From Vairimorpha necatrix (lineage: Eukaryota): a DNA stretch of 64,000 nucleotides. The notes below the pieces were generated by a model. The model was not told the DNA's origin and ran no database searches. It saw nothing but the letters and a program-made list of their open reading frames with translations. The translations under genes were made by a program, and so were the position numbers. Below, piece after piece: positions 7,741 to 22,306 of this stretch (position 1 is the stretch's first letter; every line of letters begins with the position of its first letter). The stretch is from NCBI GenBank assembly GCA_036630325.1, contig CP142735.1, forward strand, positions 496,001 to 560,000. Reading direction: 5' to 3'.

Positions 7741-9775
7741 TGTCATGTATCCGGGGTACATGGCCATTTTTATAATATCTCTCTAAATAGTTTTTAATGT
7801 AAATATGTTTATTGATGGTTTTAGTCTCTCTCTTGGATTCTATATATTCCATACCCTTCACAGACAGACTTTCTTTTATAGTTTATTTTTAATTTATTAA
7901 TTGTTGTCAACGCTAAACACAAACATTGGCGTACTTACGAATGTAGTAACGACCATCCAACTTTCGTTTGTTTGTTTGTTTGTGTGACTCATCATTACAT
8001 GCCGTTTAAGATGTTTGACAGCTGATCGTTTTGACAGTTGTCTATGTGATGTAGTCATGTACATCACATTCTGCCCTCTCCTAAAGCTTTAAATTTTTTA
8101 AAGATACCACTTCATTCTTATATATTCCTGACCACTCTTCATGTTTCAATATTTCGTCCGGCGGTTCTACTATTATATTATTTTTATTAATTTTTATTAT
8201 TTCCTGCTTATTCTTCGTGTTTATATTTTCTAACTTTTCTTTGTGCTTATTTCTTATTTTATATGTCTTCATTTGTTTATCTTTATCACGGTATTTTATT
8301 TTTGTTAATTTAATATCTCGATTTCTTTTATTGTCATCTTTATTATTTTTTATCGCATTGGCAAACTTTTGGTCAATATCTGTGTTTCTTTTAATATTTT
8401 TATCTTTTACTTTTAATATGTTTGTTCCAACTACATTCTGTAGTTTCTCATGGCTAAGCGTTTTCGCTATTATTTCATCATTTTTCGATGTTTCATGTTT
8501 TGTTTTCACTTCTTTTGAATTTTTTTTATTAGTTACTTCTTGATTTTTTATTTTAATATTCTCGACTTTATTTTCTCTATTAAATACTACCTCTTCTGGT
8601 ATGTTATTTTTCTTTATTTCTCTAATTGTAAATAATTTTTTTGGAACAATATTCGGCATTTTTATGTTTTCTAGATTTTTCTTAAGCTGCTCTGAGGTAT
8701 TGTTTAGTCTAAAGCAATCCTCTGTATTGTGCGTACTGTTTTTATGGAGGCGGCACCATTTATTTTTCTTATAACCGTCCTTTTCGGTTTCAAATTTGGA
8801 TCTATCATTATGAACTGATTCATATTTTATTCCACGCCTTTTTCCTTCAAAAATCAAACACTCTTCCACTGTTTCTAAATACGTCATGGTTTCTTCGACG
8901 TTATTTTTTCCAAGCTCTAATATCTTAAGACGAGTGGAAAAACCTAATCCCAAGAAAAAACTCTCTCTTAACTTTCTTTCGTATTCTTTTCTCGTTAAGT
9001 TTTCTAGTCTAGCATACTGATCTACTAGATTCTTTATTTCAAACAAATATTCTTTAATGTATCTAAAATTAATTTGTTTGCATGCCTGTAGCTTTAAATG
9101 TAGCATCTCAGGACTTGATCTTTGACTTAAATTTTTCTCAATATATCTTCTTATTTTCTCTAAATCTGGTAATGCAAATATTTGTTGCAATGCGGGATCT
9201 CGCACTAATTCTGCTAAGGCGATTTTCTCTTTTTTAAAATCCCATTTTTTGTTCTTAGAAATTTGGTTGAACTCTTCAAACCATGTATCTAACTCTATTT
9301 CATTAAATTCTTTGATATTTTTTATTATGCTTAAGCTTTTCTTAACTTCTAAATCGATCTCTTCGATCGTATACTTAAATTCTAACGCTTCCTTAGTTAC
9401 TGCGTTTTTGTCCCCTTTCGATACTTTGTGGGAATTGAATTCAATTATGTCATGTATCCGGGGTACATGGCCATTTTTATAATATCTCTCTAAATAGTTT
9501 TTAATGTAAATATGTTTATTGATGGTTTTAGTCTCTCTCTTGGATTCTATATATTCCATACCCTTCACAGACAGACTTTCTTTTATAGTTTATTTTTAAT
9601 TTATTAATTGTTGTCAACGCTAAACACAAACATTGGCGTACTTACGAATGTAGTAACGACCATCCAACTTTCGTTTGTTTGTTTGTTTGTGTGACTCATC
9701 ATTACATGCCGTTTAAGATGTTTGACAGCTGATCGTTTTGACAGTTGTCTATGTGATGTAGTCATGTACATCACA
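7741..9775 (-). mobile_element. Non-autonomous Gag-only LTR retrotransposon (element A), 2035 bp
   Basis: 328-bp LTRs 7741-8068 and 9448-9775, identical by eye, TG...CA; TSD ACATG (7736-7740, 9776-9780); PPT GGAGAGGGCAGAA next to the 3' LTR. Confidence 0.95.
8081..9559 (-). CDS. gag: Gag-like protein of element A (first ATG at 9559, inside the 5' LTR)
   Basis: Retrotransposon capsid-like region (LDTWFEEF...FFLGL) and CX2HX4HX4C knuckle WCRLHKNSTHNTEDC; Lys-rich tail; no PR, RT or IN core motifs. Confidence 0.85.
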   Translation of the reverse strand: MEYIESKRETKTINKHIYIKNYLERYYKNGHVPRIHDIIEFNSHKVSKGDKNAVTKEALEFKYTIEEIDLEVKKSLSIIKNIKEFNEIELDTWFEEFNQISKNKKWDFKKEKIALAELVRDPALQQIFALPDLEKIRRYIEKNLSQRSSPEMLHLKLQACKQINFRYIKEYLFEIKNLVDQYARLENLTRKEYERKLRESFFLGLGFSTRLKILELGKNNVEETMTYLETVEECLIFEGKRRGIKYESVHNDRSKFETEKDGYKKNKWCRLHKNSTHNTEDCFRLNNTSEQLKKNLENIKMPNIVPKKLFTIREIKKNNIPEEVVFNRENKVENIKIKNQEVTNKKNSKEVKTKHETSKNDEIIAKTLSHEKLQNVVGTNILKVKDKNIKRNTDIDQKFANAIKNNKDDNKRNRDIKLTKIKYRDKDKQMKTYKIRNKHKEKLENINTKNKQEIIKINKNNIIVEPPDEILKHEEWSGIYKNEVVSLKNLKL

Positions 9776-19976: not shown

Positions 19977-22306
19977 TGTGGTATCCCGGGGAAGCTCTCC
20001 CGGTGATAAAGTACCACTCTAAAATAGAATTAATATATTGGCCTTTATTTTTAAACGTCTCTTTATACTCTCTCATAGCTGTCTTGTTACTATGTCTAAA
20101 CACTCCTTGTGTTTGTCTCTCCATCTTCCTTCTGTACCCTTCCTTTCTAGAATTTTATTTATAGTAAATAAAATTCTAGAAAATTCAATGATAGATTTGA
20201 CAGGGAGTGAAATAAAATAAATGTTGTAGAATTACAGTCTACAACATCCTGCCCCCTCTCAAAGCTTTAACTGTTTCCTGTGAAACCATCCTGATAATTT
20301 ATATACTTTATACCTTAATTTAGTTTTTTCCTTTAGATTCGCCCTGTATGGACTTATAAATTTTTTATTAAGTTTGTTTGTCGAGAAGTTCCTCGCATAG
20401 AATAGAACTTCGACCTTATTTTTCTGCTTACACATTTTTATCTTGGTCTTTTTCTTTCTTGGCCGATCTGATGCATTAAAAATTACCTTACCTTTATAAG
20501 GATCATAAAATCTTATTTTTGAAATCTTATCTCGATATTTTACTACAGGGTTAACCTGATCTTTTGTTTTATCTTTAATAATTTTACCAGTTTTACATTC
20601 TGTTACTACTTTCTTATTTTTATTCTTTTTAACCCAATTTTGTTTTCCAAATACTGTATTTCTTTCTTTCTTATGTTTATTCCTACCCAATTTCACATTA
20701 CTATCTTTCGTTTTGGCTGTATAATTATTTACTTTATTATGATCTTCATTTTCAATTTTTTCATCTTCCACTACGCATAGTCTTTCAATCATTATTTCGT
20801 CCAATGTTTTTTCCGCTACCTCTTCATACCCAATGATTTTGACAATCTTCTCGTTCACAATAACTACCTTATTTTTATAATCTAAAATGCAATTGTTGTT
20901 AAACAAGAAATCTCTGCCTAGAATCACATCATACATGCATCTATCAAAGACGTATGGTTCAATAGAGTAACTCTTGCTTACTCCTTCAAATTTAAAGTCT
21001 AATTCTGTTGACATATTAGTGGTAATTACTTCTCCATTGGCTATAACCGTTCTTATAGATTTGTTTTCTCTAAGCTTTAAATTTAATCTTTTAGCTAATC
21101 CTTCAGATATAAAGCTTCTGCTTGCTCCGCTGTCTAACAAAATGTCCACGTTACTTTCCTTAATATTCGCTCTAACAACCATTTCTCTAATGTTGTCTTT
21201 TTCTTCTTCCATGACATTCATTTCATTTCTTCTTGGTAAATCCCTATAGTTTTGATTTCCTTTTTCTTTATTCATGAAGCAATCAACAGAATTATGTCCG
21301 TTGTGCTTGTGGTATTTGCACCACTTCTTTTGTGTTGAAAAGTAATTATTTTTATGTGTTCGTTCAAATGTTTCGAACTTTTTTGAATCATTTCTTGGAT
21401 TATTTAAATTAAGTATTTCTTCTTCCATCGTTAACAATTTCTTCATATATTCCTCAAGGTTGTGAACATTGATATTATCAATTAATTTTCCTCTAGTGTT
21501 GTCACCTAGCCCATTCTTAAAGTACTCCCATAATTTTCTGTTATACTCGTCCTTGTTTATCTTATATGCAAGACTATAATATTTAACGTATTTATTAATG
21601 TACTCATAGTATTCCTTGATGGTTACAAAATCGATTTGTTTTGCATTAGTAAGTTTCTTAATCCATCCCTCAGCTTTCTTCACGCTGTATACATAACTGA
21701 AAATTCTTTCTTGTATTTTCATTAAATCTCCTTTAAATATTTTGTCGTCTAAGGACTTATCAGAAATCAAGTCTCTTAGTATGAGCTCATATTGCTCTGG
21801 ATTCCATTTGTTTCTCGTGGTAATCTTCTCAAATGTTTTGAACCACTCATACATATCAAATTTTTGAATATCTTCTATAATATTCAGTTCTTCTTCAATT
21901 TTAAATTCCGTTCCTGGAATAGTGTAACTTAATTTAATTTTCTTCTGGTTTACTTCACCATAATTAGTTTTATTATCATTCACTAGTAATTTTGTACTCG
22001 CACTTGGCACTCCTACACTCGCTCTTGAATTCAAGTTGTGGTATCCCGGGGAAGCTCTCCCGGTGATAAAGTACCACTCTAAAATAGAATTAATATATTG
22101 GCCTTTATTTTTAAACGTCTCTTTATACTCTCTCATAGCTGTCTTGTTACTATGTCTAAACACTCCTTGTGTTTGTCTCTCGTTCATCCTTCTGTACCCT
22201 TCCTTTCTAGAATTTTATTTATAGTAAATAAAATTCTAGAAAATTCAATGATAGATTTGACAGGGAGTGAAATAAAATAAATGTTGTAGAATTACAGTCT
22301 ACAACA
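19977..22306 (-). mobile_element. Non-autonomous Gag-protease LTR retrotransposon (element B), 2330 bp
   Basis: 270-bp LTRs 19977-20246 and 22037-22306 (3 differences), TG...CA; TSD CTATA (19972-19976, 22307-22311); PPT GAGAGGGGGCAGGA. Confidence 0.95.
20259..22187 (-). CDS. gag: Gag-aspartic protease protein of element B, with integrase-like C-terminal tail; ATG inside the 5' LTR
   Basis: Knuckle WCKYHKHNGHNSVDC; protease LLDSGASRSFI...ILGRDFL; tail KLNKKFISPY...WFHRKQLKL resembling GPY/F; no RT, RNase H or DDE motifs. Confidence 0.9.
   Translation of the reverse strand: MNERQTQGVFRHSNKTAMREYKETFKNKGQYINSILEWYFITGRASPGYHNLNSRASVGVPSASTKLLVNDNKTNYGEVNQKKIKLSYTIPGTEFKIEEELNIIEDIQKFDMYEWFKTFEKITTRNKWNPEQYELILRDLISDKSLDDKIFKGDLMKIQERIFSYVYSVKKAEGWIKKLTNAKQIDFVTIKEYYEYINKYVKYYSLAYKINKDEYNRKLWEYFKNGLGDNTRGKLIDNINVHNLEEYMKKLLTMEEEILNLNNPRNDSKKFETFERTHKNNYFSTQKKWCKYHKHNGHNSVDCFMNKEKGNQNYRDLPRRNEMNVMEEEKDNIREMVVRANIKESNVDILLDSGASRSFISEGLAKRLNLKLRENKSIRTVIANGEVITTNMSTELDFKFEGVSKSYSIEPYVFDRCMYDVILGRDFLFNNNCILDYKNKVVIVNEKIVKIIGYEEVAEKTLDEIMIERLCVVEDEKIENEDHNKVNNYTAKTKDSNVKLGRNKHKKERNTVFGKQNWVKKNKNKKVVTECKTGKIIKDKTKDQVNPVVKYRDKISKIRFYDPYKGKVIFNASDRPRKKKTKIKMCKQKNKVEVLFYARNFSTNKLNKKFISPYRANLKEKTKLRYKVYKLSGWFHRKQLKL

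Follow-up and report, generated by a model that had tools for sequence, protein, structure and literature searches.

A perfect palindrome in the primer slot of Ty3/gypsy-type elements of Vairimorpha necatrix points to an unusual way of starting or organizing reverse transcription

Anatomy of elements A and B

We analyzed 64,000 nucleotides of the genome of the microsporidian Vairimorpha necatrix (contig CP142735.1 of assembly GCA_036630325.1, positions 496,001 to 560,000; this whole stretch is termed the window, and positions are counted from its first letter). The window is AT-rich (20%–35% G+C) and contains two Ty3/gypsy-type long terminal repeat (LTR) elements, A and B, both on the minus strand and each with an internal deletion. 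In both, a perfect palindrome occupies the slot of the primer-binding site (PBS). Acquisition of the first primer is a defining step in the life cycle of LTR retroelements, and we know of few solutions to it: the 3' end of a tRNA, a tRNA half, and the fold-back self-primer of Tf1.

Element A spans 7741–9775 and is flanked by the target-site duplication (TSD) ACATG (7736–7740 and 9776–9780). Its 3' LTR (7741–8068; 328 nt, TG..CA) adjoins the polypurine tract AGGAGAGGGCAGAA (8069–8082), and its 5' LTR (9448–9775) is identical to the 3' LTR at 328/328 positions. Element B spans 19977–22306 and is flanked by the TSD CTATA (19972–19976 and 22307–22311). Its 3' LTR (19977–20246; 270 nt) adjoins the polypurine tract GAGAGGGGGCAGGA (20247–20260) and matches the 5' LTR (22037–22306) at 267 of 270 positions. 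The ends of the LTRs are thus fixed independently by the identity of the LTR pairs, by the 5-bp TSDs, and by the polypurine tracts adjoining the 3' LTRs. Both A and B have the features that place an element in Ty3/gypsy: direct LTRs of the form TG..CA, a short TSD, and a polypurine tract preceding the 3' LTR.

The single gag open reading frame (ORF) of element A (8081–9568; 495 aa, first ATG at 9559) encodes a Gag protein with a C-X2-H-X4-H-X4-C knuckle, and protease, reverse transcriptase (RT), and integrase (IN) are missing. The ORF of element B (20259–22187; 642 aa) encodes Gag, the knuckle, and an aspartic protease followed directly by the C-terminal ~50 residues of integrase, without RT, RNase H, or the integrase core. 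The two Gag proteins are 32% identical. Both gag ORFs begin within the 5' LTR and cross the LTR boundary, so that the Gag N terminus is encoded by the last ~110 nt (A) or ~150 nt (B) of the 5' LTR, a point that matters for annotation. Because RT and integrase are missing and yet the LTRs are identical or nearly so, the cis signals retained by A and B were enough for recent mobilization in trans.

The Gag zinc knuckle of A, B, and their relatives has the form C-X2-H-X4-H-X4-C (for example, WCKYHKHNGHNSVDC) instead of the usual CCHC, and it is near-invariant in our alignments of 22 full-length relatives and 24 Gag relatives. V. necatrix itself holds the closest relatives of both elements (53% identity for A; 63% over 614 aa for B). 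The relative of B, protein P0001, matches B in its deleted architecture, and its annotation as an ERO1 oxidoreductin appears to reflect a fusion or a misannotation involving the element. That this architecture is common to B and P0001 suggests a propagating non-autonomous lineage and not a one-off deletion.

The palindromes lie one base past the CA that ends the 5' LTR, inside the gag frame. That of element A is 14 nt long (AATTGAATTCAATT, 9433–9446) and follows a spacer base that is T on the element strand (9447), whereas that of element B is 12 nt long (CTTGAATTCAAG, 22024–22035) and follows an A (22036). A first-pass annotation of this DNA gave both sequences and their coordinates correctly and placed them in the PBS slot, where, as it stated, neither site starts with the TGG that is the usual, although not universal, mark of a tRNA PBS in Ty3/gypsy elements. 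It also proposed that the constraint acts on the nucleotides, as the motif is translated as IEFN in A and as LNS in B. The reading frames uphold this proposal, as does the covariation described below: the N-terminal gag frame over the palindrome reads ..IIEFNS.. in A and ..NLNSRA.. in B, and the U5 end next to the palindrome, CCCCGG(G)ATAC..ACA, has nucleotides common to both elements but is read in different frames.

A third element in the window, C, does have a TGG-first site, as the first-pass annotation had noted: on the minus strand, ..ACA is followed by TGGGGGCGATACCG after the upstream copy of a 51-nt direct repeat (24190–24240 and 27283–27333, minus strand, 3093 nt apart). Element C contains a Gag with a CCHC knuckle (26718–27299) and an integrase fragment (24462–24968). 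It is a different, conventional-looking, degraded gypsy element, and the 51-nt repeat is putatively part of an LTR.

On their own, the palindromes of A and B are weak evidence in an AT-rich window. The 10-mer TTGAATTCAA occurs three times in the window (0.54 copies expected; 4 of 100 shuffles reach three), and its third copy lies inside an unrelated transposase ORF. Palindrome centers of at least 12 nt number 60, compared with a shuffle mean of 43.5, or roughly one per 1000 positions. The case against chance comes from three things: the palindrome keeps one fixed position, it is present at all six related loci for which DNA was obtained, and it contains compensatory changes. A second 12-nt palindrome with a TGAnnTCA core, TATGAGCTCATA, lies inside the gag of element B (21780–21791, minus strand), 244 nt downstream of the first; it may be due to chance, given the frequency of such palindromes in the window.

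The palindrome in related elements

A protein search with the N-terminal 320 residues of the element B Gag (E ≤ 1e-3; 1.84 billion representatives) gave 166 matches. Among the 10 matches whose names were looked up, four were microsporidian (Nosema granulosis, Anncaliia algerae, Vairimorpha apis, and V. necatrix) and one came from an Aeromonas metagenome-assembled genome (MAG). Related DNA loci were collected by scanning contigs through the RT motif with an alignment of 22 full-length polyproteins, which yielded 150 loci: 64 on prokaryote genome contigs, 6 on viral contigs, and 80 on metagenome contigs. The Gag family of A and B was found at only 5 of these 150 loci, all on small contigs binned into bacterial MAGs. 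The 80 metagenome and 6 viral loci were generic gypsy elements and included no member of this family, and a search of metagenome contigs with protein B alone recovered no relatives.

The LTR/gag junction is present at three of the five family loci (L001, L002, and L005), and a search of the same MAG supplied a fourth (L183). All four junctions read ..CA, one nucleotide, and then a perfect 12-nt palindrome: ..CACGGCA, T, TATGACGTCATA in L001; ..CATGACA, T, GCTGATATCAGC in L002; ..CACGACA, A, GATGAATTCATC in L005; and ..TACGCCA, A, ATTGAATTCAAT in L183. Together with A and B, the arrangement is found at 6/6 loci. The LTR ends of L001, L002, and L005 are backed by terminal inverted repeats of the TGTCGTG..CACGACA type and by a G-rich polypurine tract before the LTR start. 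L001 and L002 contain open ORFs of 1289 and 1309 aa, respectively, in which protease, RT, RNase H, and integrase follow one another; this domain order, which is that of Ty3/gypsy, was identified with Pfam in both loci and in protein P0004. Because the ORFs of L001 and L002 are open and full length, intact autonomous elements also carry the palindrome site. The ~25 nt after the palindrome contain nothing that is TGG-like or common among the loci.

Control loci were available from the same scans. Terminal or direct repeats were found at 48 of the 150 loci, 46 of which lie outside the A/B Gag family. None of these 46 has a palindrome longer than 6 nt that starts 0–4 nt past the repeat end, many of these repeat ends being assembly overlaps and not true LTR ends. 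At least a dozen of the control loci have a TGG-type site after the repeat, including L007, which comes from the same MAG. The expectation that related elements should keep the palindrome, raised in the first-pass annotation, is thus borne out at 4/4 further DNA loci, and it agrees with the pattern across 71 protein relatives that is described below.

Several contigs in this collection (L001–L005, L007, L008, and L183; 2.6–4.4 kb) are eukaryotic retrotransposon sequences that have been binned into bacterial MAGs such as "Clostridium sp.," and one family member is deposited as a protein of an "Aeromonas sp." MAG. These are prokaryote bins contaminated by repeat-rich eukaryote DNA. We infer a common host for the four MAG variants. 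The MAG that holds L001 contains 76 tRNAs, whose clusters look bacterial, and so they could not be used as host tRNAs.

Covariation was assessed in an alignment of five sequences centered on the palindrome; L183, which was found later, lies outside it. All 30 cells (six pairs in five sequences) are Watson-Crick pairs, which confirms the first-pass observation that the arms differ and yet stay complementary. Three of the six pairs have changed on both sides, in 8 cells that display 7 further pair types, and the other three (T-A, G-C, and A-T of TGA/TCA) are invariant, which gives a core of TGAnnTCA. None of 500 shuffles reached the observed covariation score, and pairing fell to 20%–44% in slid registers. 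The center pair also varies, reading AT, AT, CG, TA, and AT in the five sequences; the change from AT to CG is made through the Thr codon ACG (12% of the Thr codons in that ORF), and the change from AT to TA through the Ile codon ATA (36% of Ile codons).

Two arrangements could use such a sequence, a duplex between two molecules or a hairpin within one, and the predicted energies differ: −12.6 to −19.4 kcal/mol for the homodimer versus 0 to −3.5 kcal/mol for the isolated hairpin. An intermolecular duplex is favored because the center pair, which would not be needed in a hairpin loop, also covaries. The idea that the site forms an intramolecular hairpin in RNA or single-stranded cDNA, acting as a structure-specific start or transfer signal, draws on the GalEa copia elements, for which a 9-bp palindromic box at the LTR edge has been proposed to form a hairpin that replaces the PBS (PMC5445492). 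In addition, 3–4 further bases on each side can pair in L001, L002, and L005. Apart from its low predicted stability, the hairpin is opposed by the absence of a second complementary box downstream: matches of at least 8/10 occur only in A and are absent from B, L001, and L002. Moreover, the pair that would lie in the loop has been kept complementary by way of rare codons. We consider a hairpin improbable.

The additional pairing in these three loci involves 3–4 bases at the LTR end (GAC, GGC, or CGAC) and bases after the palindrome (GUC, GCC, or GUCG), and it leaves the last A of the LTR and the spacer as a 2-nt bulge; it was not seen in A, B, or L183. A second box was rejected: the candidate in element A is no more than an 8.5/10 match 62 nt from the start of the palindrome, and B, L001, and L002 have none.

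Because the site is translated, protein relatives report on its nucleotides, and 71 of 125 aligned rows cover it. The three residues that correspond to LNS vary in a structured way: the first is L in 44 rows, M in 16, I in 5, V in 2, and another residue in 4; the second is N in 39, I in 13, S in 11, T in 3, and another in 5; and the third is S in 56, L in 12, and another in 3. The codons of N, I, S, and T have only the first-base A in common, a pattern that would be expected if the middle base of the codon (pair 1) were free to change; compensation at a third base would be invisible in protein data.

The next residue beyond the triplet varies with the base that opens the triplet's first codon. 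Where the triplet begins with L, this residue is K, T, I, M, N, R, or S, whose codons can start with A, in 42/44 cases; where it begins with M, the residue is F, L, S, Y, C, or W, whose codons can start with T, in 13/14; and where it begins with V, the residue is L or P, whose codons can start with C, in 2/2. Within the triplet, M (ATG) is paired with S (TCA) in 16/16 cases and I or V (ATA or GTA) with L (TTA) in 6/6. For the unambiguous classes, Fisher tests that ignore relatedness gave p = 3e-7 and p = 4e-5; two duplicate rows and three rows in which M is the annotated start were dropped from these counts. At this place the protein of the V. necatrix relative of A has I-D-I-N instead of the I-E-F-N of A, and D-I is one of only four dipeptides that fit a palindrome in this frame. 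The variation of the translated motif among the 71 distant Gag relatives thus appears to follow changes that would keep the palindrome, and the "LNS" peptide motif is, on this protein-level pattern, best read as a by-product of a nucleic-acid signal.

These data bear on two explanations that need no pairing between nucleic acids. The first is that the site has no nucleic-acid function and is either a conserved Gag peptide motif (LNS) or a product of chance in AT-rich DNA. The site is indeed coding, and 12-nt palindromes are as frequent in the window as stated above. But in element A a different frame runs through these bases, a peptide motif would have no reason to accept N, I, S, and T at a single position, and the palindrome lies at one fixed position at 6/6 loci with compensatory changes. 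We regard this explanation as refuted for practical purposes.

The second explanation is that the palindrome is a symmetric protein-binding site in double-stranded DNA, with TGA-N2-TCA half-sites of the kind bound by basic leucine zipper (bZIP) proteins, for a host factor or for integrase. The invariant TGA/TCA half-sites and their 2-nt center fit this description, and one variant, ATGACGTCAT, is presumably the CRE/ATF consensus. A protein site, however, predicts conserved bases and not compensatory changes at the three other pairs. The half-site G-C pair also appears to switch to A-T in the proteins (the I/V..L class, 6/6), and a binding site provides no rationale for a fixed distance of 1 nt from the LTR. 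We consider it very unlikely.

Self-pairing and its possible role in priming

We conclude that the palindrome in the PBS slot is probably a nucleic-acid element that pairs with itself and is under selection (probability roughly 0.85, as judged from the sequence comparisons). The palindromes differ between A and B, which reside in one genome, and among the loci of one MAG. Because the site varies between co-resident elements and yet stays self-complementary, it should pair with sequence of the element itself instead of a host RNA, and because the center pair is maintained, a second molecule is the simplest choice of partner. Furthermore, the U5 edge of the cDNA is set by the 3' end of the primer, which means that there must be a primer whose end falls exactly at this site.

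The differences between co-resident elements also argue against a single host tRNA as the primer. Internal tRNA priming exists in copia-type elements. It is mentioned for FunCo1 in PMC5445492, and an internal tRNA segment or a tRNA half, as in copia or Ty5, or another small host RNA, could in principle pair with the TGA..TCA core that is invariant at the six DNA loci. A host partner, however, predicts conservation, whereas the flanks and the center vary among co-resident elements and are always self-complementary; an anticodon arm or T arm would, in addition, give an interrupted repeat and not a perfect one. The only tRNA in the window, a tRNA-Glu(TTC) gene on the plus strand between A and B (16179–16250), was also the only hit in a search of Rfam. 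It was rejected as a partner, as it matches at most 6 nt of A and B; the first-pass suggestion of comparing the site with host tRNAs thus gave no match within the window. Priming by a host RNA is, in our judgment, about as improbable as a protein site.

Self-priming in cis, in which the transcript would fold so that its 5' end pairs with the site, would be in keeping with a Ty3/gypsy family that lacks a tRNA PBS, as does the Tf1/sushi group (PMC7175516). We looked at whether the LTRs, within which the transcript must begin, contain a complement of the palindrome, which also addresses a match to the transcript 5' end, a possibility named in the first-pass annotation. The longest exact complements in the five LTRs are 5–7 nt, a length equaled in 82–494 of 500 shuffles, so no complement rises above chance and the feature that characterizes Tf1/sushi elements was not found. 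The positions of these matches are not common to the loci, Tf1 needs 11 nt, and palindromy would be superfluous for such a mechanism. Fold-back priming is disfavored more strongly still than a host primer.

A mechanism that would account for both the palindrome and its position is the following. The palindrome would be a cis-acting replication signal of a microsporidian Ty3/gypsy clade, standing in place of a tRNA PBS. Two genomic RNAs of one element family would anneal through it to form a 12–14 bp duplex directly 3' of U5, and this duplex would provide both the dimer linkage and the minus-strand primer. A cut in one strand at the palindrome's 3' edge, much like the one that Tf1 RNase H makes at the edge of its 11-bp RNA:RNA helix, would leave a 3'-OH from which synthesis would proceed along the other RNA across the spacer base, U5, and R, in a trans form of self-priming. 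Pairing is supported by the covariation; we infer that the partner is a second RNA, that it is cleaved, and that the cut end primes. We put the chance that this full sequence of events is correct at slightly below even. Priming of one RNA copy by another that is cleaved, and alternatively a dimer signal, had been suggested in the first-pass annotation.

The chief competing explanation accepts the pairing and removes the priming: the palindrome would be a dimer-linkage or packaging signal only, and the primer would be an RNA that pairs weakly or that uses an unrecognized non-adjacent or bipartite PBS. Covariation that includes the center pair fits an intermolecular duplex whatever its purpose, and short palindromes near the 5' end mediate dimerization in Ty1 and Ty3 (PMC6844567, PMC11381356). 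Those palindromes and the retroviral ones, however, are ~6 nt long and are additional to a tRNA PBS. In the A/B family the palindrome fills the PBS slot itself at a fixed spacing of 1 nt from the LTR at 6/6 loci, the next ~25 nt contain no TGG-like or common sequence, and the primer position sets the U5 end of the cDNA, so that a primer must end here. We therefore consider a role in dimerization or packaging alone unlikely, although it deserves the most serious attention among the alternatives to trans-priming.

The trans-priming proposal can be extended to a whole clade. In this broader version, the microsporidian Ty3/gypsy clade would start reverse transcription without host RNA, from a palindromic PBS whose variants act as "compatibility labels." One RNA, or each of the two, would be cut at the duplex edge and would prime on the other, so that dimerization, partner choice, and priming would be a single event, and the labels would match families to their own kind, A, B, and other non-autonomous Gag-only riders included. 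We offer this version tentatively and hold it to be less probable than the trans-priming mechanism by itself.

Several considerations weigh against these proposals. All of the support comes from DNA and protein sequence, and transcription, dimerization, cleavage, and priming are proposed steps. The DNA support comprises six loci from two sources, the window and one MAG, and the pattern in the 71 proteins is indirect and was assessed by tests that ignore phylogeny. The TGA/TCA core is invariant at the six DNA loci, which pure pairing does not call for and which could reflect a sequence-specific reader or the coding frame. As A and B have a 10-nt core in common, they would be expected to cross-pair, and "like-with-like" specificity would be incomplete. 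A primer of ~100–150 nt (R-U5-palindrome) would give plus-strand strong-stop synthesis no obvious stop, and an RNA that is cut loses its PBS, so that the two RNAs would have to be asymmetric. Finally, the tRNA comparison covers the single tRNA-Glu of the window.

If the proposal is correct in outline, it has several consequences. The data point to an unusual, hitherto undescribed way of starting or organizing reverse transcription, and the mechanism yields a clean prediction, namely trans-complementation of two half-mutants. It may also help to explain how non-autonomous Gag-only elements are mobilized in compact parasite genomes. Programs for LTR annotation that require a tRNA PBS will overlook or misjudge such elements.

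Other features of the window and comparison with known systems

The gene for pyruvate dehydrogenase E1-beta lies at 18768–19727 on the minus strand; its closest named relatives are from Vairimorpha ceranae (74%) and Nosema granulosis (64%). An intergenic region at 12828–13826 (20% G+C) contains dense tandem arrays of 19-nt and ~43-nt units (..CTTAGATTT..). A segmental duplication of ~3.5 kb (37500–41200 and 59800–63100; 72%–92% identity) holds paralogous proteins of 413 and 433 aa, each with a signal-like N terminus, Ser/Pro/Gln-rich repeats, and a C-terminal hydrophobic segment. The window is transposon-rich: further transposon-like ORFs or fragments, which include putative DNA-transposase-like ORFs and additional RT and integrase pieces, lie at 31843–32766, 41913–42686, 47793–48927, 49480–50187, 51022–51750, and 58170–59204.

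Microsporidia-specific groups of Ty3/gypsy elements were described by Parisot et al. (2014; PMC4202319). The A/B family resembles these groups in having a single gag-pol polyprotein ORF, in being restricted to microsporidia, and in including many families in Anncaliia and Nosema. The main text of that paper contains neither "PBS" nor "primer," and so it gives no description of a priming site. More generally, searches of main texts in an open-access library turned up no account of a palindromic PBS for either microsporidian or gypsy elements. A review mentions a proposal that the Cryptococcus elements Tcn2–5 use novel priming.

Short self-complementary sequences that join two genomic RNAs are familiar from other retroelements. 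PAL1 and PAL2 of Ty1 and PAL6 of Ty3 are dimerization palindromes that exist alongside tRNA sites (PMC6844567, PMC11381356). The palindrome of the A/B family is like these sequences, like the Ty3 dimerization site (DS), and like the retroviral dimer initiation site (DIS) in that it is self-complementary, lies in the 5' part of the genomic RNA and partly inside gag, and would join two RNAs there. Unlike them, it is 12–14 nt and not ~6–7 nt long, and it sits in the PBS slot and not away from it, with no tRNA PBS being kept.

Tf1 and Tf2 provide a second comparison. In Tf1, the first 11 nt of the transcript pair with a non-palindromic PBS in the same molecule, and RNase H cuts after base 11 (PMC7175516); the primer thus annealed lies next to U5. 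Like these elements, the A/B family is of the Ty3/gypsy type and lacks a tRNA primer, and the use of the element's own RNA as primer together with a cut by RNase H at the helix edge is the model that we have borrowed from Tf1. Unlike Tf1 and Tf2, the A/B family has no complement in the LTR and its site pairs with itself, so that a second molecule would be needed.

The closest precedent is the Conserved Hairpin Site of the GalEa elements, fungal copia elements in which a palindromic box of 9–10 bp lies at the LTR edge in place of a PBS (PMC5445492; cited again in PMC6934838). No complement of the Tf1 kind was found in GalEa by the authors of that study. In both systems, a palindrome at the edge of the 5' LTR (in GalEa, the terminal A followed by CTGATCAGT or CTAATTAGT) is found where there is no tRNA-type PBS, and its variants arise by paired substitutions.

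The two systems differ in several respects. GalEa belongs to Ty1/copia, with integrase before RT, whereas the A/B family belongs to Ty3/gypsy, in which RT precedes integrase. The GalEa box includes the last A of the LTR and is accompanied by a second, inverse-complementary box 12–41 bp downstream with which it forms a hairpin, whereas the A/B family has a single perfect palindrome of 12–14 nt that begins after a 1-nt spacer and whose center pair covaries. A palindrome in the primer slot has thus been reported once before in the sources consulted, in fungal copia elements and without a mechanism. The occurrence of the same solution in an unrelated superfamily, where it has been kept by compensatory change across microsporidian genera, suggests that the mechanism is recurrent and probably general.

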